From: Octopus vulgaris
Taxonomy: Eukaryota
Assembly: GCA_951406725.2 (NCBI GenBank)
Contig: OX597819.1
Coordinates: 87,916,001-87,980,000 of the forward strand
Reading direction: 5' to 3'
Length of the DNA stretch: 64,000 bases
Below are positions 8,540 through 43,433 of the stretch, in pieces. Each line of letters opens with the position of its first letter. The stretch's first letter is position 1. The translations under genes and the position numbers were made by a program. Below the pieces are notes generated by a model. It did no database searches, was not told where the DNA came from, and saw only the letters and a program-made list of their open reading frames with translations.

Positions 8540-11500
8540 TTACATACTGGAGGAGAGAGTATTCTCTACCAAAGTAAGTAAAAAAAACCATCAGATACAG
8601 AATTAAAATTAGTGATGAGTATTTGCAGCAGTGTAATGGACCCACATTCTGGCAGATTAACGCCAGTCTATATTCTCTGGCTACTACTGCAAAGCAGTAC
8701 ATGAATGACATTCAAAAAGTGAAAAAGACCGAAAGAACAAAGAAAATACCATCATGGGTTTTTAAGACAGAGAAATAGATAACTGATTTACAGAAGATCA
8801 TCAGTCATGTGATGATGCTTATTGCATGCAAAACAAGCAAATCACTATACGTGCCACCAACAGAAAGTAAAGAAGGAGGTAGAAATAATGTTTGGAGACA
8901 GCAGAAAGAGGACACTCACTTGCAGACTGACTACCCTTAAGCAGGTGCTTGAGGGTAATCAGTGTTGTCGGTGAGAAACTCCAGCATCAGAAGAAAATAA
9001 CTGAGAGAAAAACAATGAACAAAAAAATTTAACTAGAGCAGGCAGTAGTATACAGAGACATTATACAGGTATAGGAGTGGCTGTGTGGTAAGTAGCTTGC
9101 TTACCAACCACATGGTTCCAGGTTCAGTCCCACTGCATGGCCTCAGGCCAACCAAAGCCTTGTGAGTGGATTTGGTAGACAGAAACTGAAAGAAGCCTGT
9201 CGTATATATGTATATATATGTATGTGTGTGTGTATATGTTTGCATGTCTGTGTTTGTCCCCTTAACATTGCTTGACAACCGATGCTGGTGTGTTTACGTC
9301 CCCGTAACTTAGTGGTTCGGCAAAAGAGACCCATAGAATAAGTACTAGGCTTACAAAGTATAAGTCCTGGGGTCGATTTGCTCGACTAAAGGTGGTGCTT
9401 CAGCATGGCCACATCAAATGACTAAATCAAGTAAAAGAGTAAAAGAGTAAAGAGAGACATGAGAAGAGGAGCAGTGAACATCACAGAAGCTCCTTCACAA
9501 GAAGACATAAAAACCTTCTGGAGGAAAATCTGGAGTGAAGAGTAGTTTAACTAAGATGCTTTGTAGCTGGAAGAAATTCGGAGAAGTAATTGTCTCTGCA
9601 TTACACTCAAGACATACAGCATTGATGGTGATACTCTTACAACTGTGATCCAGAAACTCCAGGATAGAATAACACTTGGAAGAGACTTGATGTTTGGATT
9701 TTAGTACAAGAAGCTGACCATATCTTATCAATTTGTACCAGCAAGCTTTCAATGAGAACAGTAGCATACCACATTGGTTAGCTCTGGCAGAGACAAAATT
9801 GATCCCAAAATGCAGAACCACTCACATGGCAAAAAGCTACAGGCCAATTGCATACCAGAACTTAACGTGTAAAATATATACAGCATGCTTAAACCTCTTC
9901 CTTCAGGACCATTGTGAAGCCAATAACATCAGCACAACAGAACAAGCACCTGAGAAGAAGAGAGTCTGGGGATGTGCTGAGCAATTGTTGATCAACAAAA
10001 CTGTTATGCCAGAGGTGCGAGAGAATAGGAGGAACCTAGTTTCAATGTGGCTAGATTACAAGAAAGCCTTCGACTCTGTTCCCCACTCAAGGATTCTAGA
10101 AGCCCTTCAACTTGTTAAAGTTCCAGTGAGAATAGTCAAAGCCATAGCTGACCTGACTTCACCATGGGCCAACATCTTGAAATAAAAAAAAGAGTGACTG
10201 TATTATCACTGATAGAACACAGTATCACAAAGTCATGTTCCAAGGAGACAGCCTCTCTGTGATGTTGTTTATACTTTCTGTAAACCCCTTGTCATTCATG
10301 TTAAGGAAGTCTGAAGGATATCTCACTGGTTCACAAGGAAACAGAAATACTAAAATTACATACTGTTTCTTTTAAACTTTATGCAAAGAATATGCCTGAA
10401 ATAAAAAAGAGCTTGGCCTAATTACAACATTCTCAAAGGATGAAGGGTTGGAGTTTGGTCAGGAAAAATGTTATTTGGTTGTGAAAAGTGGGGAAACTGT
10501 AAACCAAACTAGCTGCATCTCCATCAATGACTTGACTGTTTTCCCTATATCTGATGAGGAATGTTACAGGTATCTAGAGGTGGATGAAAACATATCTTAC
10601 AATGGCACTTGTAACAAAATATGTGTCACTAAAGAATATTATAACCGAATAAAGGAAATTTGGACCTAGGAACTCTCTGCATTCAATAAAACAGTGGCCC
10701 ACAATGTGTTTTCGGTGCCAGTACTCATACCAACATTTGAGCTGCTTGATTGGACACTTGATGAGATCCAAGCGATTGATGTGAAAACCCGAAAAATACC
10801 AACAAGAACATATAATTTCCACATAAACAGTGACGTAGACTGCCTCTACCCAAAATGAAAACAAGGTGGCAGAGGCTTAACATCAATCCAAAATGCTTTC
10901 AAATGTCATATCAAATCCCTTTGACAACATCTTTTAACCACCAAGCGTCGAAGTGCATCCCTTGATCAAGTTTGCATACATGAGGCTGATAACATAAGAC
11001 TTGGAAGGCAGCTCCTTGAACAACATACCTTGTCTGATAACCTTATATACCTGCCCAAAGAAGTCACACGACTCTACCATAACGTATCATCAGATGAAAG
11101 GATGAGCATATATAAGAAGACTATGTATGGATATGTTAGTAGACAGCTCCGAGATGATAGTAACATTGATCATCAAAGCAGTCTATCATAGACCAATAGC
11201 CGGATTACTACCTCTCACTTTGAAGGGTAAGCATTTGCAATCCAGGAACAGAAAATATCAATAAAATACCTGATGTACAAAAGGAATGGAGATGCAGGAA
11301 AACCAGTAAAATGTGGCAATTGATGCAGACTTTGTGGAGTTAACACTGAAGATATCACCAGTGAGACATGATGTTGTAGCTAGGACATTATATAATGAAA
11401 TCTGTTGGAAGAATAACCCTGTAGACAAAGAAATAAGAACCCACAATATAGTAGAAGCCATAGTCACTCAAAACAAAAAAGAGTACTGGTGGAATACCCC

Positions 11501-11950
11501 AGTGAAACCTTCAATAAAATGTAAGCACAATAGACCTGATATAATGATTTGGGATAGAGAAGAAAATCTGTGTACAGTTGTGGAAATTAACTGCCCATTA
11601 GATGTTAACATAAAGCTGAAGATCAGAGAAAAAGACAACACCTATGCTGAACTATTGAGAAATCTGCTGTTACTCTATCCAGATTACAAGTTCAGGTTTA
11701 TACCTGTAGTTATTGGGACTCTGGGGTATGTAACACACTGTCTAAATGCCAATCTTGAGAAATTAGGTTTCTCAAAACTAGAAAGAAGAAAGCTGATTCA
11801 AAGACTATAGATCCAATCCATCACTGGAACTATGAAAGTCTGTCACACTCTCCAGAAGTTTATCATTTAAAATGTATATGAGCATGTCTAGACAAGCAAC
11901 TATATGCATGAGAATACATACATAAAACAAAACATACAAATCTGCACACA
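8540..11950 (+). mobile_element. Degenerate non-LTR retrotransposon with RT and restriction-like endonuclease (R4/Dong-like)
   Basis: RT motifs YRPIA, WLDYKKAFDSVPH, FQGDSLS and YRYL; zinc-knuckle remnant CRLCG at ~11325; RHD and RPDIMIWD...VVEINCP endonuclease motifs (ORFs 9733-10185, 11313-11810). Many stops and frameshifts. Confidence 0.88.
9065..9452 (+). mobile_element. SINE family A inserted in an R4/Dong-like LINE
   Basis: Matches family A. Possible target-site duplication AGAGACAT on both sides. Confidence 0.88.
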
Positions 11951-12002
11951 TACATACATACGTACATACATACATACATACATACAGGCATACATAAATA
12001 AA

Positions 12003-12406
12003 TACTCTTTTACTTGTTTCAGTCCTTTGACTGCGGCCATGCTGGAGCACCGCCTTTAGTCGAGCAAATCGACCCCAGGACTTATTCTTTGTAAGCCCAG
12101 TACTTATTCTATCGGTATCTTTTGCCGAACTGCTAAGTGACGGCGACGTAAACACACCAGCATCGGTTGTCAAGCAATGCTAGGGGGACACACACACACA
12201 CACACATGTACACACATATATATATATATATACATATATACGACTGGCTTCTTTCAGTTTCCGTCAACCAGATCCACTCACAAGGCATTGGTCGGCCCGA
12301 GGCTATAGTAGAAGACACTTACCCAAGATGCCACGCAGTGGGACTGAACCCGGAACCATGTGCCTGGTAAGCAAGCTACTTACCACACAGCCACTCCTGC
12401 GCCTAT
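12003..12406 (-). mobile_element. SINE family A
   Basis: Full-length match to the other copies, embedded in (TACA)n. Confidence 0.88.
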
Positions 12407-12439
12407 GTACGTACAAACATACATACATACATACATACA

Positions 12440-13400
12440 TATCTACTGCTATTGAGAGACTTATAAAGACCCTCATAACAATTCTTACACTTAGAACTAA
12501 GAACAGAACAATCATCTCCAATATTATAAATATTTCGGAAGGAATATTTAAAGTAGATAGTTTTGGTAGTCTTTCAGTAATTCTTCTCATTTTGGCATTA
12601 AACCCATTATCATTCTTGCTACAAAAATCAAATGGCTCCATGCTAGGGTCTGCAACTGCCAGAAGTGTTAATGTAATTAATAATTTCTTTGTGGATGATC
12701 TCAAGATTTATGCTAAAAATGTTAACAATGCCAAAAAACATCTGGAATTATTAACAACATTTTCAGCTGACATAGAAATGAAATTTGCCCTATACAAAGG
12801 TGATTGTTGAATGGGGAAAAATCAGCACCCCCAAATCCAAAACGGGTACATCAAAGGCCTCACTATCTCTCCTATGCCACACAAAGAATGCTACAAGCAC
12901 CTAGGCATTGAGGAAATACACATCATGCGAAGGTACTGTAAATGAAGATAGAGTGACACAAGAATATTATGTCAAACTTGGAAAAATATAGCAGTCGGAA
13001 CTCCCCTCTTACAACAAGACAATGTCCCACAATACGTTTGCAATACCAGTACTGATTCCAACATTTGGGATACTTGACTGGTCTATGGAAGAAATCCACT
13101 CCACAGGCGATAAAACATGCAAGATACTAATATCAGCTGGAAATTCACATTTATGCCAATAATAATTGGTGCATTAGGTTTTGTGAGTAAATGCCTAACT
13201 GACATTCTGGATAAACTAGGGCTTCCAGAAAAAGAAACCAACCAGTTAATTCGCACATGACAAATAAAATTTGTATGTGGAACAGTAAAAGTATGCATGA
13301 CTTTCCTTAAGTTTAAAATCTGACATTGATTTTAAAACTATTATTTTTTTTTTTGTCATGGCATACAGCAGTGACTCTAACAGGAAAATCTAAAAATACA
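12440..13400 (+). mobile_element. Second, internally deleted R4/Dong-like LINE fragment
   Basis: ORF 12328-12810 contains GIFKVDSFGSLSVILLILALNPLSF and FFVDDLKIYAK. Downstream sequence parallels 10560-10800 and 11690-11870. Confidence 0.8.
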
Positions 13401-14289: not shown

Positions 14290-15624
14290 CTGCCATTGCG
14301 CAGGATCAGCCAGCTCTGGAAACATTGGATCTAACTTCCACCAAGCTGTCCTGTTGCAAGTTTGCCTATCTTCCACTTCCGTCTGCAGAGGGCACAATCC
14401 TTTGTGACACAGCTACTGGTTCTCCTAGTCCATTTGTACCTGCGAACCACCAGCATTCTGTTTTCTATGCTTTGCATTCACTATCACATCCTGGCATCGC
14501 TACCTCGATGAAGCTTATTACGGCTCGGGTTCTTCTGGCCTAATATGCACCGTATGATCACCGCTTGGGCACGCTCTTGTGTGAAATGTCAGCGTTCTAA
14601 TGTCCACAGGTACATCCGTGCTCCTCTTGGACAGTTTTTCCCTCCGGAGACTCGCTTTCGCCATGTCCTCATTGATCTGGTTGGACCATAGCCTGTCAGT
14701 CGCGGTTTCTCTTACATACTGACATGTGTCGATTGTTTCTCTTGTTGGCCTGAAGCCATTCCAATAGTGGACATTTCCGCTGAGTGAGTTGCTCGAGCTT
14801 TCGTTTCTCACTGGATTGCTCGCTTTGGTATCCCAGCTAAAATAACCACTGATCGTGTACGCCAGTTCGAAGCTTCTTTATTTCGTGAATTGTTACGAAT
14901 CCGAGGCATTCATCACATTTGTACGACCAGCTACCATCCAGCTTCCAACGGGATGGCCGAACGTTTTCACGGGCAACTGAAGGCCGCTCTACGTACCACT
15001 CCTGACCCACAGTCTTGGACAGAATTCCTGCCAATTGTTCTTTTTGGTTGTCGCACTGCTGTTAAAGCAGACTAAGGTTTTTTCTCTGCTGAACTCCTGT
15101 ACGGTACTGTCCTGGCACTCACTGGTACAATGCTGGTGCCAGACAGTTCATCGCATCCTGATCCAAAGTCATATGTCACCAGACTTCGCTCGTATTTCTC
15201 AAGTCTTCAACTCATGCATCCGCGTGACCAGTCTATTCCCTCTCACGTCCCACCGGACATTGACAAATGGACTCATGTTTTTGTTCGGGATGATTCTGTC
15301 AAAGGACCTCTCGTTTCTCCTTATAAAGGACCATTTAGTGTGCTATCACGCACACCCAAAAGTCTCGACATCAATGGTCGGGCAGAGACTGTGTCGGTCG
15401 ACAAACTTAAAAGGGCACATTGTGAGGTGTCCTCATCCTTTGATGATACCCCAACCACGCCCACCTTTGATCTTTTACAACCACCTACACATGTACCTTT
15501 GACCACACCATCAACTACACCTCCACCTTCGTTGCCACAACCTAACACGAGCAAACCCTATGTCACTAGGACATTCCGCACTGTGCATTGGCCCCCAAAA
15601 CGCACCAGAACTATTTACATCTAA
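14290..15624 (+). mobile_element. Gypsy LTR-retrotransposon integrase fragment (pseudogenised)
   Basis: HHCC region HSLSHPG...WPNM...WARSCVKCQ; core IDLVGP, WPEAIP and TTSYHPASNGMAERFHGQLK; C-terminal PYKGPF..VSVDKLK. Contains stops and frameshifts. Confidence 0.9.
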
Positions 15625-16329
15625 CCATTTTTTTTCCTGAGACAGACAATTGTTTTCTCACAATTCCAATGCCTTGCCATTGAACTTTGTCAAAAATTTC
15701 GTGCATGTCTCTTTTATATCACTTGTAATTATTTTTTTCTCAACTAATCACATTTTGTGCCACATCTTGTTTGCGATCGATGGCCATCTTTGTTTTCTTG
15801 TGCCTGCTCCAGTCATTCTAATTTCACACTAGCGTTCTCAGTGGGGAACCTTTGTAGCGTGGCACAAGTAGCCAGCACCATTTTGTACGAGATCTCGCTG
15901 GCAGCCATTATCTTGTCCGAGACAAGAGTGAGATCTCGCGTACAACCGTTTGCCATGCGCGACACCGCAACGAGACTCTGCTCGACAACGGCTACTTAAG
16001 CAGGTGCGAAAGACATTCAACCTCTTAGTCTTCTCCAGCTCCCATACGCTGAGGGACACTACGAAGCAGGCAGCTACAGCGGACTCTAACCCGCTCTAAC
16101 CACATCTGTTATTCTCCAGAGGTAATGTACCTCACATGAATGGAAATATCACAAGTCATGCGCTGCCATGAAGTTGGACACCGGGAACGGGACACAAGAT
16201 CGGGAATCCCAATAAACGATTATTGAATTGCATCCGCTCGTGAGTTTCTTCTTTCGCATTCCAGATCCTTAAGACAGAAAATAATTATAATGGGAGAAGA
16301 TGATACTCTACCCGTATCATGAACCTCCC

Positions 16330-16912
16330 CTTCCATTATACATAAATGATGAGGGAAGATGGATGGAACAAACGATAGCCCCATTCGGATTGATGAAGCA
16401 AGATTTGCTGGTCGACGGAAATACAATCGAGAAAGAATTCTGAATGCCGACAATGCTCCTTTCTTCGAAGACAGTAATGCAGAACAACGAAACAACAGAA
16501 ACCCTGGTAGTAAAATTGGTGGGTCGTGGGTTTTTGTTTTCAAACAAGGCTCAGACTGTCGATACGGCGTGACGGGAACAGTTTGATCCCAATTATTGAG
16601 AGAGAATGTGGAAAAGGTTCAGTAGTTCATTCAGATGAGTGGCCCGCTTATAATAATTTAAATGCCAAAGGTTATCACCCTCTGACAGTGAACCATCAAC
16701 GACATTATGTGGATCCAGTGACCGGAGCACACGCTCAGGCCATTGAGCGATCATGGTTAGATGCTAAAACTATGATTCTGAGAAAAATGAGAGGCGTTGG
16801 TACTGAACTTTTCCAGTCACATCTTGATCATTTCTACTGGAAGACGACGAGGAAAAATTCAGATGATTTATTTCTATTGTTCCTTAATGACATAATAAGT
16901 GTTTACCGTTAA
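16330..16912 (+). mobile_element. Merlin / IS1595 (ISXO2-like) DDE transposase fragment
   Basis: IDEARFAGRRKYNR..GGSWVF, then a frameshift, then VHSDEWPAYNNL..GYHPLTVNHQRHYVDPVTGAHAQAIERSW. Confidence 0.85.
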
Positions 16913-17699
16913 AATAGATTGTCTTGATTTATTTGTGTAATTTCTTTATCATATAAAATAATATAAGATTCAATATTTCTTATTTGTGTAATTCCTTTAC
17001 AATGTACGAAGTGTTTTATCTCTGAAATATCTGAAGATATTTAATCTCTGAAATATCTGAAAGATAAGGTAGATAGCCCTGACTATACTCTTTGACACCG
17101 TGGTAGACTGCATACTATCCTAGCACCGGCAGGTCCAAGGGCTCAGTGTTAATCTATATAGTATGCCATGGTTGTGTACACAAAACTCCATGCATCACTT
17201 TCGCTGAGGGTCTATAATATTGCTAAGACTGTCTTCAGTATAGTATTCGTACTATTGATCTCGATTGTGTGGCAAAATCGAAGTCAACTTAGACGCAATT
17301 TTGAGTTACAGACAACCTCACGAGCCAACGATGGGACCTATACACCGTCACTCCATTTACTAAAAATAGCAGCAAAAATTCACTCTAACAACAGCTTACC
17401 ATCTTAAAGAAAAAATGAGGAGCGCAGGACAATATAGTTTCAGATATGCAAAAAGGCAAGAGGGATACAGCAGAAACGCCCCTAAACATACAGCTCAGTT
17501 TTGGCTAAATAGAAACAACGGCAACTTTATTGATAGACATGAACCAATTAGGGAGTTTTCAAGAAAAAAGTGAGGGTACATTAGATAATATATTCCAAGA
17601 TATGAAAGCCCTATGGGAAGAGCAGGGTGATCGTGGGTGGAACGTCTTTGATTTTAGATCTACAAAGAACTGAACTGATGCTAAACTATAATTCTACTG

Positions 17700-17742
<43 letters not shown>

Positions 17743-18021
17743 ATATAATTAATTAATAAGGGTGAGAGAATTAGATACTAATTTAATAGTATATTTATTC
17801 AACACCAAGTGGCCTAGTGCTCCGAGAAACCTGGATTATTATAATATTTTATAACATATTATAATATTTTTACAAAATAAATATAAGAGAGTGGTCACTA
17901 TATTGCTCACTCTAGCACCAGTTAATCCAAAAGGTTTCAACCACGAAAATACATGTTTCCCATGAAAGTCAGTACGATTGTTAGCTCACACGGACAGGGC
18001 AAATAAAAAATAACAAAAATA

Positions 18022-18118
18022 CAGATTATTTTGGGACAATTGTTTCGCTATTAATGAATTAAATGTAATTTTACTTACAAAAAAAATCCATTTGTAGCTC
18101 GTCAGCCAAAACTATCTG
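18022..18118 (-). ncRNA. Type I hammerhead ribozyme, copy 1
   Basis: Minus strand reads CAGAUAGUUUUGG-CUGACGA-GCUA...UAGC-GAAA-CAAUU-GUC^CCAAAAUAAUCUG. The catalytic core is complete, stems I and II pair, and stem III is the palindrome ACAAUUGU. Predicted cleavage between 18035 and 18034. Confidence 0.9.
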
Positions 18119-18557
18119 GATGAAATCCACTCAATCACACGCCAGATTTTACCATAACGATAAATACGCGTGTGGTTCAATTGATTACATCCGACGTTAT
18201 AATTCAAATGCCCCAACCAACAGCGCGCCAAACTTTCACGGAAAACAAATACAGCATTTAGAAATAAATGCAGCATAATTATAATTAATTAATAAGGGTG
18301 AGAGAATTAGATACTAATTTAATAGTATATTTATTCAACACCAAGTGGCCTAGTGCTCCGAGAAACCTGGATTATTATAATATTTTATAACATATTATAA
18401 TATTTTTACAAAATAAATATAAGAGAGTGGTCACTATATTGCTCACTCTAGCACCAGTTAATCCAAAAGGTTTCAACCACGAAAATACATGTTTCCCATG
18501 AAAGTCAGTACGATTGTTAGCTCACACGGACAGGGCAAATAAAAAATAACAAAAATA

Positions 18558-18654
18558 CAGATTATTTTGGGACAATTGTTTCGCTATTAATGAATTAAAT
18601 GTAATTTTACTTACAAAAAAAATCCATTTGTAGCTCGTCAGCCAAAACTATCTG
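18558..18654 (-). ncRNA. Type I hammerhead ribozyme, copy 2
   Basis: Same sequence as copy 1, offset by 536 bp. Predicted cleavage at 18571/18570. Confidence 0.9.
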
Positions 18655-19093
18655 GATGAAATCCACTCAATCACACGCCAGATTTTACCATAACGATAAA
18701 TACGCGTGTGGTTCAATTGATTACATCCGACGTTATAATTCAAATGCCCCAACCAACAGCGCGCCAAACTTTCACGGAAAACAAATACAGCATTTAGAAA
18801 TAAATGCAGCATAATTATAATTAATTAATAAGGGTGAGAGAATTAGATACTAATTTAATAGTATATTTATTCAACACCAAGTGGCCTAGTGCTCCGAGAA
18901 ACCTGGATTATTATAATATTTTATAACATATTATAATATTTTTACAAAATAAATATAAGAGAGTGGTCACTATATTGCTCACTCTAGCACCAGTTAATCC
19001 AAAAGGTTTCAACCACGAAAATACATGTTTCCCATGAAAGTCAGTACGATTGTTAGCTCACACGGACAGGGCAAATAAAAAATAACAAAAATA

Positions 19094-19190
19094 CAGATTA
19101 TTTTGGGACAATTGTTTCGCTATTAATGAATTAAATGTAATTTTACTTACAAAAAAAACCCATTTGTAGCTCGTCAGCCAAAACTATCTG
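19094..19190 (-). ncRNA. Type I hammerhead ribozyme, copy 3
   Basis: As copy 1, offset by 1072 bp. One change at 19159 turns an A-U pair into G-U in the extended stem II. Predicted cleavage at 19107/19106. Confidence 0.9.
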
Positions 19191-19451
19191 GATGAAATCC
19201 ACTCAATCACACGCCAGATTTTACCATAACGATAAATACGCGTGTGGTTCAATTGATTACATCCGACGTTATAATTCAAATGCCCCAACCAATAGCGCGC
19301 CAAACTTTCACGGAAAACAAATACAGCATTTAGAAATAAATGCAGCATAATTATAATTAATTAATAAGGGTGAGAGAATTAGATACTAATTTAATAGTAT
19401 ATTTATTCAACACCAAGTGGCCTAGTGCTCCGAGAAACCTGGATTATTATA

Positions 19452-19494
<43 letters not shown>

Positions 19495-19519
19495 GTTTAT
19501 TGTTTGGTATGATATCTGG

Positions 19520-19768
19520 TACTAGCAAGTTCTTGCAGGTTGTATATTCGCTGTTGATCCATGGTGAAGTAATTCACGAACAGCGCAGTGCTATAACGTG
19601 GGCGAGTACGTAGAGAGATGTTGACGTTAGGACAAATGGTGGCGACAGAGATGGAGGTCGCTGAATGCTGTTGGACGAAGTTGACGAGTCTCCATGTGGC
19701 TGCTGTTGTGTTGTCGCTTGGACTGGCGGTGTCTTGTGTGGTCAGTGGTTAGACCTTAAAAGGTCTGA
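19520..19768. repeat. Dispersed repeat, homologous to 14030-14279
   Basis: Same blocks in the same orientation as 14030-14279. Confidence 0.75.
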
Positions 19769-20732
19769 AACCAAATACATCGAGACGAGGAAAAGTTATG
19801 TTTTTTTTTATAAGGAGTTATAGGCTCAGTTGAGGTAGAAAAGCACGCTGTCACACGTGACCTTATTTGAAGGCTGCGATTGGTTGGGTTGCATATTGGC
19901 GCGCGATAGAGCCAAAGACAAATTGCGCCAATACGAACCAGTCAGAGTAGTGGACACAACAGGGTCCAAGATGTGTCCAAAGGCTAGCTGTTATCTACTA
20001 CGTTCGTATGTATGTATAATGGAGAGGAGAGGAATTTCACTCAAGTGTACGTTCAGTATCAACAGGCCAAAATATAAGTAACGTAGTGGGTGGAGATTCT
20101 GCTTTGTACATAGATATTTGGGAAGTATGGTGCTATGATGGTTCACTTCACAATATTGTAGTGAAAGTCTGTGTTCCAACCTTCGGCTGTAAGTTTGGGT
20201 CGAACCAAGCGTTGCGAATATGCAACTGTATACATCTATAATTCAACGAGTCAGTTGTTTTGTCGCTTGAACAAGTGGAATATTCACTGGAGTTAACGAT
20301 GGCGGTTGCATTTATTTACTTTTTGCTTAAAAGTATGACTGGAAAAAATATCCAGATTTATCTGCTCCATGGAAAATTAAGTCAAACGGGTGCTTCAATC
20401 AGTAGAGAAACTGATATATCTCCAGCTATTTTGAGATAAGCGGTGACGATTATATTAATAAAATCCAGTAATGTAAAAAATATGTCGTTGAATTAACACC
20501 ATTCAATAAAAAGAAAAAATCAGATTCACCTCCTCCACCGAAATCTATTTTTAATTAATTTTTAATTAATTTACATCTCAGGCACTAGCGTACCTAGAGT
20601 GTGTGCTGCCCGCGGCGGCCCTTCCGTTTTCCGCCCCCGGACCCCACAAAAAACACATTGTCTATGTCAGACCCAAAAGTGGTGCCCCTTTAAAAGTACC
20701 CCCCCCATACCTATCTACACTAGTGATCCTCA

Positions 20733-21519
20733 GAGGATCTTTTCTGTTTGGTTGCCAGCGTCAATTTTTCGTTCAAATTGATTTCATATTCAGTGTAATA
20801 ATATACTTTTATCGGCTAATTAATGACATGAAAGTAATTTTCTCTATAAATCAGTAAGTTAAGAGTTACCAGTAATTAAAGTTTGAAAATTTTGGTAATT
20901 TTAGCCATCTTAAGCCACAGACACATTCATGGCTGTTTCAATAGTAAGAAGCGGAACATAAGAACTCTTTTGCTTGTTGCCGTAGTAACAGTCTTTGAAA
21001 CGTCATTTATCTGCAATGAAGTATGTGTTGGCAGCAGTCTTTGAAAAATCTTTTATCTTCGAGGAAGTACGTGTTGACAAATTTGACGCTGTGTTCTGTG
21101 TGATTATAGCAGCAAACTCCTGTAACTTCGTTTTTATTATGGTTTCTTTCTTTCATTGAGCATTGAGGTGGTTGTGAAGTGTGCTAAAAATAACTGCTAA
21201 ATAAGATTTCTTGGATAAATCTTTTAAATTAACACAAACATTTATTTACATGAAAGAAAATTACATGCTATTTTCAGATTGTTGACGACAAAATGTGCTG
21301 TCACGCACAAATTGACAGCTTCCAAACCCTATTTCTTGACTGGATGAAAAATGATCAAACTTTAAACCTCTGTAACTATTTTAAAATATTTTCCAGAAAA
21401 AAAAATGAAATTACTCCAGCAATTTAGTTTGGACAAGTGTATTATTGTGTCGAATTTAAAAATTTTCGGTAAGCTTTAATTTTTGGAGCCGCTAGCAACC
21501 AAACTGAAAAAATCCATCC
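20733..21519. mobile_element. Non-autonomous TIR DNA transposon (MITE)
   Basis: About 26-bp imperfect inverted termini: GGATCTTTTCTGTTTGGTTGCCAGCG (20735) and CGCTAGCAACCAAACTGAAAAAATCC (ending 21515). A similar end sequence occurs at ~22058. Confidence 0.65.
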
Positions 21520-27742: not shown

Positions 27743-29030
27743 ATCATCATCATCATCATCATCATCATTTAGCGTCCGCTTTCCATGCTAGCATGGGTTG
27801 GACGGGTCAACTGGGGTCTGTGAAGCTGGAAGGCTTCGTCAGGCCCAGTCAAATCTGGCAGTGTTTCTACGGCTGGATGCCCTTCCTAACGCCAACCACT
27901 CCGCGAGTGTAGTGGGTGTTTTTTACGTGCCACCTGCACAGGTGCCAGACAGAGCTGGCGAACGGCCACGAACGGATGGTGCTTTTACGTGTCACCGGCA
28001 CGGGGCCAGGCGATGCTGGCAACGGACACGAACGGATGGTGCTTTTACATGCCACCGACACGGGGCCAGACAGAGCTGGCAAACGGCCATGAACGGACGG
28101 TGCTTTTACGTGTCACCGGCACGGGGGCCAGCCGAGGCTGACAACGAACACGAACGGATGGTGCTTTTACGTGCCCAGACAGAGCTGGCAAACGGCCACG
28201 AACGGACGGTGCTTTTACGTGTCACCGGCACGGGGGCCAGCCGAGGCTGGCAACGGACACAAACGGATGGTGCTTTTACGTGCCACCGACACGGAGGCCA
28301 GGCAGAGCTGGCAAACGGCCACGAGTGAATGGTGCTTTTACGTATCACCGGCACGGGTGCCAGACGAGGCTGACAGCGGACACGAACGGATGGGTCACTT
28401 AACCCCTGCTTTCTGATATATGATTTGATTTTGATTGTTCTCACTGGTCTTGCCGGGTCTTCTCACACACAGCATACTTCCATAGGTCTCGGTCTCTGGT
28501 CATTTCCTTGGTGAGACCTAGAGTTCGAAGGTCGTGCTTCATCACCTCGACCCAGGTTTTCCTGGGTCTACCTCTTCCACAGGTCCCCTCAACTGCCAGG
28601 GTGTGGCACTTTTTCACACACCTATCTTCATCCATTCTCACCACATGACCATACCAGCGCAGTCGTCTCTCTTACACACATCTGATGCCTCTTAGGTCCA
28701 ACTTTTCTCTCAAGGTACTTACACTCTGTCGACTATGAACACTGACATTACACATCCAACGGAGCATACTAGCTTCATTTCTCGCGAGCTTACGCATGTC
28801 CTCAGTAGTCACGGCCCATGTTTCACTGCCATGTAGCATGGCTGTTCGTACACATGCATCATACAGTCTGCCTTTTACTCTGAGCGAGAGGCCTTTAGTC
28901 ACCAACAGAGGTAAGAGCTCCCTAAACTTTGCCCAGGCTATTCTTACTCTAGCCGTTACACTTTCAGCACACCCACCCCCACTACTGACTTGGTCACCAA
29001 GATAACGGAAGCTATCAACTACTTCTAGAG
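27743..29030 (-). mobile_element. 5'-truncated RTE-clade LINE (ORF C-terminus, minisatellite-bearing 3' UTR, (GAT)n tail)
   Basis: Reads FRYLGDQ..ARVRIAWAKF..RLYDACVRTAMLHGSETW..MLRWMC..RRLRWYGHVVRM..RGRPRKTW. The tail appears as (CAT)n on the plus strand at 27743-27768. Confidence 0.9.
27920..28395. repeat. ~60-bp GC-rich minisatellite (~8 copies) in the RTE 3' UTR
   Basis: GTGCTTTTACGTGTCACCGGCACGGGG...GCTGGCAA(A)CGG(C/A)CACGAACGGATG recurs at ~60-bp spacing, e.g. 27979 and 28039. Confidence 0.85.
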
Positions 29031-41273: not shown

Positions 41274-43243
41274 CTATACAACATATTCTATTAAATAATC
41301 GGGGTAAGCTTGGGCACTATCAAATATAACAAAAATCTTTGGGTCCCATATGTTGTCTACACAAGAGTCATAGCATTTTCCAAATGGTTCGGCACATGGA
41401 TATAAAGGTGGGGCTTTCTTCAGGCTGCTGTTACCACCTGTGTACTTGCCCACGAGAACTTTGGCAATGAACATTTTCCGCGTGCAGTTTGTAGGTATTG
41501 AGGTCCGTGTCGTATGGGGTTCTCCATTTTGGCAGTAGAGTTGGAGTGTGTTTGCTGTCTGTTGAGCCTGGATTGCTTGTGGGGTAGGGGGCTGAGGCTG
41601 GGTCTGTGGGACCAGCTGTTGTTGTTGGGATGGTGCTGGTGGTGCTGGTGGTACTTTCACTATTAGTTTGGATTGTGAATGGCCAACAGTGCTGACTTTA
41701 GGACCAGAAGTTCCTGGTGGAATGGGCACAACAAAACCTTTCCGCAGGAATATTTGTTGGGGTTGCTGCTGTGGTTGCACTGGGGCTTGGTGATGGTGGT
41801 GGTGATGGTGGTGATGGTGATAGTGATGTAAATGATGTGGTGTTTGTTGTGCAGCTTGTATATGCTGGGGTGGGGCTTGGGGTTGGTTCTGTGGAGGTAC
41901 ACCAGCTTGCTGGGCCATTACTTGTTGCTGAGGCTGCTGTTGCTGAGATTGTTGTTGAGATGGCACTCTTCCAAAAACAAGTTTCGGCTGGGTGTGAGAC
42001 ACCATGTTAACTTTAGCTGCCGAAGCTCCTGTTTGAAAAGGGGACAAAAATTCTCCAAGTGTTATCAGCTGAGGTGCTGAAGTTGATGTGACCTGTTGCA
42101 GTGTTGGCCCAACTTGCTGTGGTTGCTGATGATGTTGCGGTTGGGCTAACTGTGGAACTTGTGCAGCAGTCTGTAATTGCGGTGATGGTTGTAGTTGTTG
42201 CACAGCCTGCAATTGCAATAATGGCTGTTGAGCTTGTGAGAGTTGCTGTGACTGCAGCGCCTGCGATGGTATCGCTGGTTGCTGGAGTCGTTGTGTTGCT
42301 TGTGCCTGCAGTCGTTGTGTGGGTTGTGTTTGAAGTCGTTGTGTGATGCGCTGCAGAAGGTATTTTTGCTGCTGCTGCTGCTGTTGTTGTTGTTGCTGTT
42401 GTTGCATTTGCTGTTGTGGTTGTGACAATCCTCCAAAGATTAATTTAGAGTGTGAGTGTGAAGCCAAATGGCTTTTGGGATTAACAGCAGTTCCTGCCTG
42501 GAAGGGTACAACCAGAGGGATATGTTGAGGTGTGCTAGTCACTGGCACTGTCTGCAGTTGTTGGTGTACTAGCTGTTTAGGGGCTGTTGACAGCACAAGC
42601 GGAGACTGCATAACTGTATTGTTAGCAGTTACAGTAGGGCCAACATTACCACTGGAAGGAAAGGATACAGTCAAATTTTGTAATGAATATGAAGATGATG
42701 ATGAGGGTGTTGAAGATGAAGAAGATGATGGGACATTAGGAGCAATGCCAACTGATGAAGTGTCTTGCATATTAGGCATATTCTGAACAGTTTGGTTCTT
42801 GTCTGCATCTGTCATTGGCATCATGACAATGTTTATGCGATTAGACGGTACTCTGTTTACAGCAGTGTTTGGATTGTTAGTAGCTTTGATAGTCGGACAA
42901 CATATATTTGATCCAGCTCCAGGAGGTGCAGCTCCTAATAAAGCTTGACTAACAAATGGGTTGTTACTAGAACTGGCCATTATGCTTCCTTGAGCAGTAT
43001 AGGTGGTCACTGAACTTGTATAGCCTGTTAATTGCAGTGGTGCAGCTGGGTTCATACTTGGAATATTAATACTTGGACTCAACTTGAGGAAAGCATTTTT
43101 ATTGTAAGGATTGCAGAAGACTTTAGTGGTCATTGCAATGTTGTTAGAACTGACACGACCAGCTGGAATTGGACGCTGCCGCTTAATACGAATGTCATCA
43201 GTAAATTGATGAGAGTATGAAGCCTCGCCCGCAAAGTAGGAGC
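41274..43243 (-). CDS. PARP-family mono-ART gene, terminal coding exon (C-terminal part of the catalytic domain, interrupted by a 574-aa low-complexity segment)
   Basis: Acceptor tttcattgtAG at 43245-43244, phase 1. Reads (G)SYFAGEASYSHQFT, then an open 574-codon insert, then KMFIAKVLVGKYTGGNSSLKKAPP...YDSCVDNIWDPKIFVIFDSAQAYPDYLIEYVV*. These motifs match the TIPARP/PARP11/PARP12 catalytic C-terminus. Includes ORF 41274..43133. Confidence 0.93.
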
Positions 43244-43433
43244 CTACAATGAAAAAGAAAAAAAATGAAAAGAGGATACAATTAAAAGTGAAAAATAGAA
43301 ATGTAGTAAATCTAAGTGAATTTTACATTATCTCAATACACTTTATTGCTTTTTGCAATATTTTCCCTAAGATTATAGTGGCACAGAAGTATAAGCTGTC
43401 TATGTATGTGCAAATCATATTGTTTTGTCGTTT

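Follow-up and report, generated by a model that had tools for sequence, protein, structure and literature searches.

A high-copy 536-nt tandem repeat of Octopus vulgaris carrying a type I hammerhead motif with a 40-nt hairpin in loop 2

Introduction

The closest kin of the repeat described here are the metazoan non-LTR retrozymes, as characterized in the accessible parts of two reports (Cervera and de la Pena 2020, PMC7229834; Li et al. 2026, preprint 10.64898/2026.07.22.740005). Metazoan type I hammerhead motifs usually have a helix III of 1 to 2 bp with a small palindromic loop, and tandem copies fold as an active dimer, which is thought to permit the cutting of multimers but not of monomer circles (PMC4209133). 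A one-pair helix III needs the dimer, whereas two pairs with a tetraloop are more stable and "similar to invertebrate HHRs" (PMC7229834), a pair count that, on our own reading of the text, includes A15.1-U16.1. The retrozymes of coral and mussel are active as monomers, with rates of about 0.8 and 0.1 per min, and axolotl HHR_Amex2, which has two pairs but a weak helix II, reaches 22% in 1 h as a monomer (PMC7229834). Eight of nine predicted retrozyme dimers failed to cleave in vitro (10.64898/2026.07.22.740005). With respect to mobilization, an anole Penelope element studied in vitro uses an internal start of reverse transcription and AT-rich targets (PMC11167929), and a bias toward (TA)n targets has been reported for several Penelope-like clades (PMC8557442).

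Results and discussion

A type I hammerhead on the minus strand

The window, i.e., the whole 64,000-nt stretch of Octopus vulgaris DNA that was analysed, is AT-rich DNA of animal type in which microsatellites and decayed retroelements occur. The hammerhead called by the initial annotation is borne out: positions 18118-18022, read on the minus strand, are a type I hammerhead by core consensus and Rfam alignment, with the following parts.

18022..18118, minus strand: type I hammerhead, copy 1 (core, fold prediction, Rfam alignment)
18106..18118, minus strand: stem I, 5' arm, folding with 6-7 bp beside the core, a small internal loop and 5 bp beyond
18099..18105, minus strand: core C3-A9, CUGACGA, with N7 at 18101, polymorphic in the family
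18047..18098, minus strand: stem II, 52 nt (fold prediction, Rfam alignment)
18043..18046, minus strand: core G12-A15.1, GAAA (consensus match)
18036..18043, minus strand: stem III ACAAUUGU, a self-complementary 8-mer, 2 bp plus AAUU tetraloop
18035, minus strand: C17 of the GUC triplet (consensus)
18034..18035, minus strand: predicted cleavage site after C17 (from the Rfam alignment and hammerhead consensus)
18022..18034, minus strand: stem I, 3' arm (fold prediction)

The core (C3-U4-G5-A6-N7-G8-A9, G12-A13-A14, A15.1-U16.1 and H17) matched the consensus at 13/13 positions checked, and it is surrounded by three helices, of which helix I is open-ended and helix III is weak in the energy model. 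All 45 positions of the Rfam model RF00163 (Hammerhead_1) were aligned, with 30.1 bits and an E value of 4.1e-6 in a 121-nt search. This score lies below the gathering cut-off of 34 because of a 40-nt insert in loop 2; a search of the whole window at gathering score gave 0 Rfam matches, and an E-value scan of 701 nt gave 3 weak unrelated matches, from which the hammerhead was absent. Internal loops, candidates for the tertiary contact of loop 1 with loop 2, are found at the canonical spacing from the core (PMC4209133), after 6-7 bp in stem I and 4 bp in stem II, with loop 2 interrupted by the insert. For the window's own sequence the energy model favours an inactive pairing of G5-A6-C7 with G16.2-U16.1-C17.

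In a metagenome scan, a pattern made of core, gap and stem III was found at 66 loci, none of which (0/66) could form three or more pairs in each of stems I and II; with this pairing failing in all, these loci were rejected as chance matches. A scan of a phage collection gave no match.

A 536-nt tandem unit with one hammerhead per copy

The hammerhead belongs to a tandem array, which is laid out as follows.

17744..19461, minus strand: tandem array, 536-nt unit, about 3.2 copies (blastn of the unit against the window: 100%, 100%, 98.4% and 100%)
19106-18571 and 18570-18035, minus strand: complete cleavage-to-cleavage units (tandem structure)
18558..18654, minus strand: type I hammerhead, copy 2, identical to copy 1 (sequence comparison)
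19094..19190, minus strand: type I hammerhead, copy 3, with one change, at 19159 (sequence comparison)
17704..17748, no strand assigned: (TC)n/(TA)n flank adjoining the 3' end of the element (the junction 18280 = 17744 + 536 recurs in other copies)
19458..19489, no strand assigned: (TA)16 flank, the truncated 5' end (repeat scan)

Two positions set copy 3 apart from the other two copies: 19159, which lies in stem II, and 19293, which is not part of the ribozyme. The 12-mer of stem III occurs 3 times in the window against 0.01 expected.

The unit shares with the metazoan non-LTR retrozymes the head-to-tail repeats and one type I hammerhead per unit (complete in 3/3 full units), as well as a low G+C content (0.32), strong self-pairing and the lack of an LTR or ORF, the longest ATG ORF in the array being of 54 aa. 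The cleavage-to-cleavage unit folds at −154 kcal/mol (z −7.4), with 0/100 shuffles as good, and the circular fold reaches −150.8 kcal/mol on the hammerhead strand versus −108.2 kcal/mol on the other. A helix III of 2 bp with a tetraloop is also that of invertebrate retrozymes (PMC7229834). At 536 nt the unit is longer than the 170-400 nt of tested animal retrozymes, within a predicted range of 51-972 bp (10.64898/2026.07.22.740005). What sets it apart from the metazoan retrozymes described in the accessible texts is the 40-nt hairpin in loop 2 and a cluster of A-to-G differences.

No long inverted copy was found within 15500-21500. Each unit contains a 30-nt near-perfect AT palindrome (17837-17866, and at +536 and +1072), and the 5' truncation of the array falls inside this palindrome, adjoining (TA)16.

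Copies in sequencing runs and the pattern of ends

The unit is present in 20/24 listed runs, from 9 studies and under 3 organism labels; one of these runs may be the window's source. Contigs were placed on the unit for 4 of the 20 runs, namely X1, X3 and X5, which are DNA-like, and X11, which is guessed to be RNA, no run on record as RNA being among those listed with the unit. With 4527, 1262 and 766 matching contigs in the three DNA-like runs, and with varied flanks, the unit is dispersed and multi-copy. Among the 24 loose ends listed of 186, a (TA)n junction at 18280-18281 was seen in 6, 8 and 2 contigs of X3, X5 and X11, which is the same place as the left end of the array in the window. 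The (TA)n joins of the other side are, among the same 24 of 186, scattered (17968, 18216, 18277 and the window's right end), and one left-side join at 17880 is an exception to the fixed end. A fixed (TA)n end together with scattered other ends fits the trace expected of target-primed reverse transcription from a fixed start.

We consider it reasonably probable that the array represents a single insertion of a metazoan non-LTR retrozyme that is present in many copies and bears a type I hammerhead of the canonical invertebrate form; the element would be a non-coding retroelement, probably mobilized by a Penelope-like element. Its sequence, fold predictions, tandem structure, high copy number and end pattern were observed or computed, and from these we infer cleavage, circles, a helper element and the rate in each form. 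A multimeric minus-strand transcript would be cut at each hammerhead to give 536-nt units, which a host ligase could circularize. With a nicked (TA)n target as primer, a reverse transcriptase of the Penelope type would start at a fixed internal site about 290 nt past the cut and run for more than one round, and such copying would leave copies joined head to tail, constant at their 3' end but variable at their 5' end. For the ribozyme a helix I of 6-7 bp, a helix II of 4 bp and a helix III of 2 bp with a palindromic tetraloop are predicted, the 40-nt insert presumably making of loop 2 a 2x2 internal loop that keeps the usual spacing from the core. Its cleavage would probably be slow to moderate when alone and quicker when tandem transcripts form a double hammerhead. 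No Penelope-type ORF was found among the 8 window ORFs scanned in Pfam.

The unit could instead be the pseudo-LTR (pLTR) end of an autonomous Penelope-like element, arranged in tandem through template jumps, with a weak or protein-assisted ribozyme and no need for a circle. Retrozymes are indeed related to pLTRs (10.64898/2026.07.22.740005), and the hammerhead of the anole element is protein-dependent and not required for insertion in vitro (PMC11167929); the fixed 3' end and the (TA)n target are compatible with either model, and loose ends reveal relatives with parts of the unit beside other flanks. However, the whole unit is strongly self-paired in a strand-biased manner, the head-to-tail joint was seen in 4/4 runs, the share of placed contigs continuing into unlike sequence is only 0 to 0.03, and the helices are canonical, unlike those of the minimal pLTR hammerhead. 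We therefore regard the pseudo-LTR origin as improbable, and a retrozyme insertion remains the preferred reading. The minimal hammerheads of Penelope pseudo-LTRs do share with the unit the type I topology, palindromic 15.2-16.2 and loop 3, and the Penelope link (PMC4209133; PMC6765202). In those motifs helix III is slight or missing, helices I and II measure 4-5 and 7-8 bp, and stem II carries an additional base at its 5' end (PMC4209133), whereas the unit has canonical helices without an extra base before stem II. Identity with a minimal PLE hammerhead was rejected, since the lengths of helices III and I and the start of stem II disagree.

The frequent DNA variants of the ribozyme, among those listed, are N7, one A-U to G-U change, a shorter U run and a wobble in stem I. 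Within the 13-nt core the sole frequent DNA variant listed is N7, with 18-43% G in the three DNA-like runs. N7 is a free position of the hammerhead core. Core variation confined to N7 agrees with function as weak evidence, because about 14-16 variant places per 536 would give only ~0.3 expected in 12 positions. In X11 the N7 variant (18101) has 0 of a depth of 126.6, versus the 18-43% of the DNA-like runs.

Other joints were also observed. One loose end, before 18129 in 2 contigs of X5, has a reverse complement that shows a stem I-like arm and then, at its end, the beginning of a hammerhead core; judged from the sequence, it is probably a sister family with a different ribozyme. Other loose ends at 17995 and 18129 likewise suggest relatives that have parts of the unit in common with it. 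A joint of 18033 to 18101 in X3 represents a rare copy without 67 nt of the ribozyme, and an opposite-strand joint of 18008 to 18320 in X11 is an inverted junction such as has been described in Penelope-like insertions.

A 40-nt hairpin inserted in loop 2

In the predicted fold of stem II a 4-bp stem leads through a 2x2 loop to a helix of 8 bp, which an internal loop separates from a further 5 bp closed by a 6-nt loop.

18098-18095 with 18050-18047, minus strand: proximal stem II, 4 bp (fold prediction, Rfam alignment)
18094-18093 and 18052-18051, minus strand: 2x2 internal loop of stem II (fold prediction, Rfam alignment)
18053..18092, minus strand: hairpin of 40 nt within loop 2, with helices of 8 and 5 bp on either side of an internal loop and a 6-nt loop at its tip (fold prediction, Rfam alignment)

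The unusually long stem II of the initial annotation, with its 52 nt and its distal helices, holds, except that the first distal helix is predicted to have 8 bp and not 7. The Hammerhead_1 alignment places the 40-nt distal stem II as an insert inside loop 2, the loop 2 consensus of RF00163 flanking it on both sides, and the proximal stem II has a pair probability of 0.999. On the ribozyme strand the distal 40-mer folds at −7.0 kcal/mol, versus −1.7 kcal/mol on the opposite strand. As good a fold was obtained for 3/200 shuffles and, in a larger run, for 63/5000, as well as for 13/1378 overlapping window 40-mers of like G+C from which those in the array or bearing microsatellites had been dropped, these odds being modest given that the hairpin was chosen post hoc. 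When the window 40-mers of like G+C were left unfiltered, 48/316 folded as well.

It had been stated that 19159 is the only substitution in the three ribozymes and changes A-U to G-U with the pairing kept, which is correct; as evidence for stem II it does not serve. Of the 26 possible transitions in the distal stem, 14 preserve pairing, and covariation at 19159 was rejected on that ground. No compensatory changes were seen in stem II among the copies and variants examined. A second A-U to G-U change, at 18091, makes up 25-45% of the depth in the three DNA-like runs. In DNA-like runs the U run of the stem II internal loop is also shorter in 12-23%. The position equivalent to 19159 in copy 1 (18087) is absent among the 40 variants listed of 51. 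A-to-G changes that preserve stem II pairs may be favoured by editing.

The distal stem II might thus be a neutral, recently acquired AT-rich hairpin, or one that traps the ribozyme in an inactive form, with the element spreading regardless. This is what the lack of compensatory changes would suggest, together with a wobble-keeping outcome that is expected for 14/26 transitions (in the whole unit 7/11 paired variants keep pairing, versus 55% expected) and with the about 1% of like-composition 40-mers that are equally stable. A neutral hairpin sits less well with an insert that is placed exactly within loop 2 without disturbing the proximal stem, and none of the frequent DNA variants listed disrupts it. 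Neutrality or trapping is accordingly a minority view for us, although one to be taken seriously.

In the literature searched, which left some relevant material outside reach, no folded 40-nt insert in loop 2 of a retrozyme was found; an "extended" stem or helix II refers elsewhere to 6-8 bp, in the accessible text of PMC13725137. The loop 2 hairpin is what is new in this retrozyme hammerhead. The insert puts a high-copy hammerhead under the Rfam cut-off and outside the 7-17 nt spacer of the descriptor used in the search of PMC8557442, and censuses of animal retrozymes may overlook families with such inserts.

The initial annotation suggested that the long stem II may be a family-specific module; a related arrangement may exist in the HHR_half_core of Naiad elements, where the core halves lie 35-50 nt apart in 8 families, several of them with (TA)n targets (Craig et al. 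2021, PMC8557442). In two Naiad consensus passages of that report we recognized a hammerhead core and a 5-bp proximal stem II, with spacers of about 46 and 50 nt, which suggests from sequence that some Naiad "half cores" are complete hammerheads with a long stem II. They differ from the unit in sitting in autonomous elements, and the accessible text does not describe them as folded ribozymes (PMC8557442). When six motifs or names specific to the unit were compared with the accessible Naiad set (PMC8557442), only the generic core matched, and a direct link to the cephalopod Naiad marked half_core was rejected because the 3' end of that one element is unlike the unit by eye.

The stem III palindrome and the double hammerhead

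A 2-nt loop cannot sterically close three base pairs, and the earlier drawing of stem III as ~3 bp around such a loop fails: in the monomer, stem III consists of A15.1-U16.1 and C15.2-G16.2 closed by AAUU. This two-pair stem itself dictates 4/8 of the palindromic bases, and from the composition of the unit a self-complementary 4-nt loop has a chance probability of about 0.08. Between copies, the palindromic stem III can form an 8-bp duplex of −6.4 kcal/mol. With structures forced, in energy models that omit the tertiary contacts holding the monomer and that were uncalibrated by any monomer-active control, the double hammerhead reached −180.4 kcal/mol, which is 8.8 better than two single active folds (−171.6), versus −182.8 kcal/mol for two inactive folds in which G5-A6-C7 is paired to the GUC triplet. 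In the same models the natural N7 variant is predicted to remove the inactive pairing and to favour the double hammerhead, the inter-copy palindrome pairing at 0.91 versus 0.004 for the intra-copy stem III. For the window sequence, with its own N7, the modelled probability of the active stem III is 0.0001 alone, and that of the inter-copy helix is 0.002, compared with 0.0006 within a copy, a dimer gain of only about 4-fold.

The proposal that tandem copies can pair as a double hammerhead is thus upheld by the forced-structure energies and by the pairing probabilities of the N7 variant, and on these models dimer formation likely helps cleavage. The further claim that cleavage needs the multimer found no support, the two-pair helix III with tetraloop being of the invertebrate type, in which monomers cleave (PMC7229834). 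The unit resembles newt satellite 2 and axolotl HHR_Amex1 in a palindromic loop 3 that can form an inter-copy helix, and differs from them in having two pairs and a tetraloop, as in HHR_Amex2 and invertebrates, where newt satellite 2 and HHR_Amex1 have one (PMC7229834); the obligate newt/Amex1 type has a single pair or none. The general idea of a palindrome, a dimer and the cleavage of multimers but not of monomer circles was already published (PMC4209133), and the dimer mechanism adds nothing beyond what is in print.

A ribozyme that works only as a double hammerhead, with the multimer required and the monomer circle safe, is nevertheless conceivable, and the insert could enforce the dimer by abolishing the contact of loop 1 with loop 2. 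The 8.8 kcal/mol advantage over two single active forms and the pairing of 0.91 against 0.004 with the N7 variant point in that direction, as does HHR_Amex2, which with 2 bp and a tetraloop is far better as a dimer than as a monomer, palindromic loops and dimers being general among such motifs. However, invertebrate motifs with such a helix III reportedly cleave efficiently as monomers, and newt motifs too can do so given an extended stem I (PMC6155905). Moreover, the tertiary contacts that hold the monomer are missing from the energy models, and the window's N7 gives the dimer only its about 4-fold advantage. We thus hold an obligate dimer to be rather unlikely and prefer a ribozyme that the dimer assists.

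A-to-G differences and possible editing

In X11, a single run presumed to be RNA, with three contigs at the core and compared without DNA of the same animal, 28 T>C places were found versus 3 A>G, i.e., A-to-G on the hammerhead strand (binomial p 4e-8, overstated since the places were treated as independent). Of the 26 T>C places listed from these 28, 21 stay below 1% in each of the DNA-like runs, and for many the count there is zero at summed depths of 1e4-1e6. The changes are clustered, a pattern that resembles A-to-I hyper-editing.

17899..18045, minus strand: clustered A-to-G stretch in X11, 21/40 A positions

Outside this stretch 0/115 A positions are changed, the bounds being chosen from the data and the count covering the 40 variants listed of 51. 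X11 reads G at A13 (2 contigs), A14 (1 contig), A15.1 (3 contigs) and the second A of loop 3 (3 contigs), with G at A15.1 in 26.6 of a depth of 60.6. Three X11 contigs (records 12, 13 and 14) cross the predicted cut, which fits uncut RNA, re-ligated RNA or DNA. With G as a proxy, the inter-copy duplex loses stability through the loop change, from −6.4 to −3.4 kcal/mol. Hammerhead cleavage is abolished by G at A13 or at A15.1. The same holds for A14G (PMC4889925).

No clear neighbour preference of the ADAR kind emerged: a 5' G precedes 2/21 edited versus 5/16 unedited A (p 0.11), and a 3' G follows 2 edited versus 3 unedited A. Pairing in the predicted circle is no higher for the edited A than for the unedited (0.46 vs 0.48), which argues for a duplex other than the predicted fold. 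Given the opposite-strand joint in X11, the edited duplex may be an inverted copy in a host transcript, in which case editing would be a by-product.

On balance, RNA of the ribozyme strand likely undergoes A-to-I editing. That host editing at GAAA and in the palindromic loop switches off both single and double cleavage, with the loop 2 hairpin as a functional module of this subtype, is a speculative extension that we think has a small chance of being right, and a regulatory role of editing on retrozyme circles seems to us equally improbable. If true, core editing would offer a host/element mechanism for why metazoan retrozyme circles escape re-cutting in vivo, and the loop 2 hairpin subtype would escape short-stem descriptors. 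The hammerheads of metazoan circles are probably blocked in vivo by something besides self-pairing, and in the accessible text editing is only named as one possible cause of circRNA heterogeneity (PMC7229834). In the literature searched, which covered few subscription journals, no paper on the editing of retrozyme hammerheads was found.

In DNA, the frequent variants of X1, X3 and X5 within 17790-18325 comprise 4, 5 and 4 T>C and 0 A>G, in runs that share polymorphisms and are not independent. This strand bias could reflect edited RNA fixed by retrotransposition.

Surroundings of the array

No tRNA was found in a search of the window. A fragment of an ISXO2-like (IS1595/Merlin-type) transposase lies 0.8 kb from the array at 16514-16912 on the plus strand (PF12762, E 1.8e-11), and decayed pieces of a non-LTR retrotransposon occupy 9718-12810 of the same strand, with an RVT_1 match at 9718-10185 (E 2.4e-9). 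A 682-aa open frame on the minus strand (41274-43322), rich in glutamine and histidine, ends in a weak match to the PARP catalytic domain (PF00644, E 1.8e-5, below cut-off). At 27921-28393 there is a G+C-richer tandem repeat with a period of 61 (or 109), about 8 copies and 76% matches.
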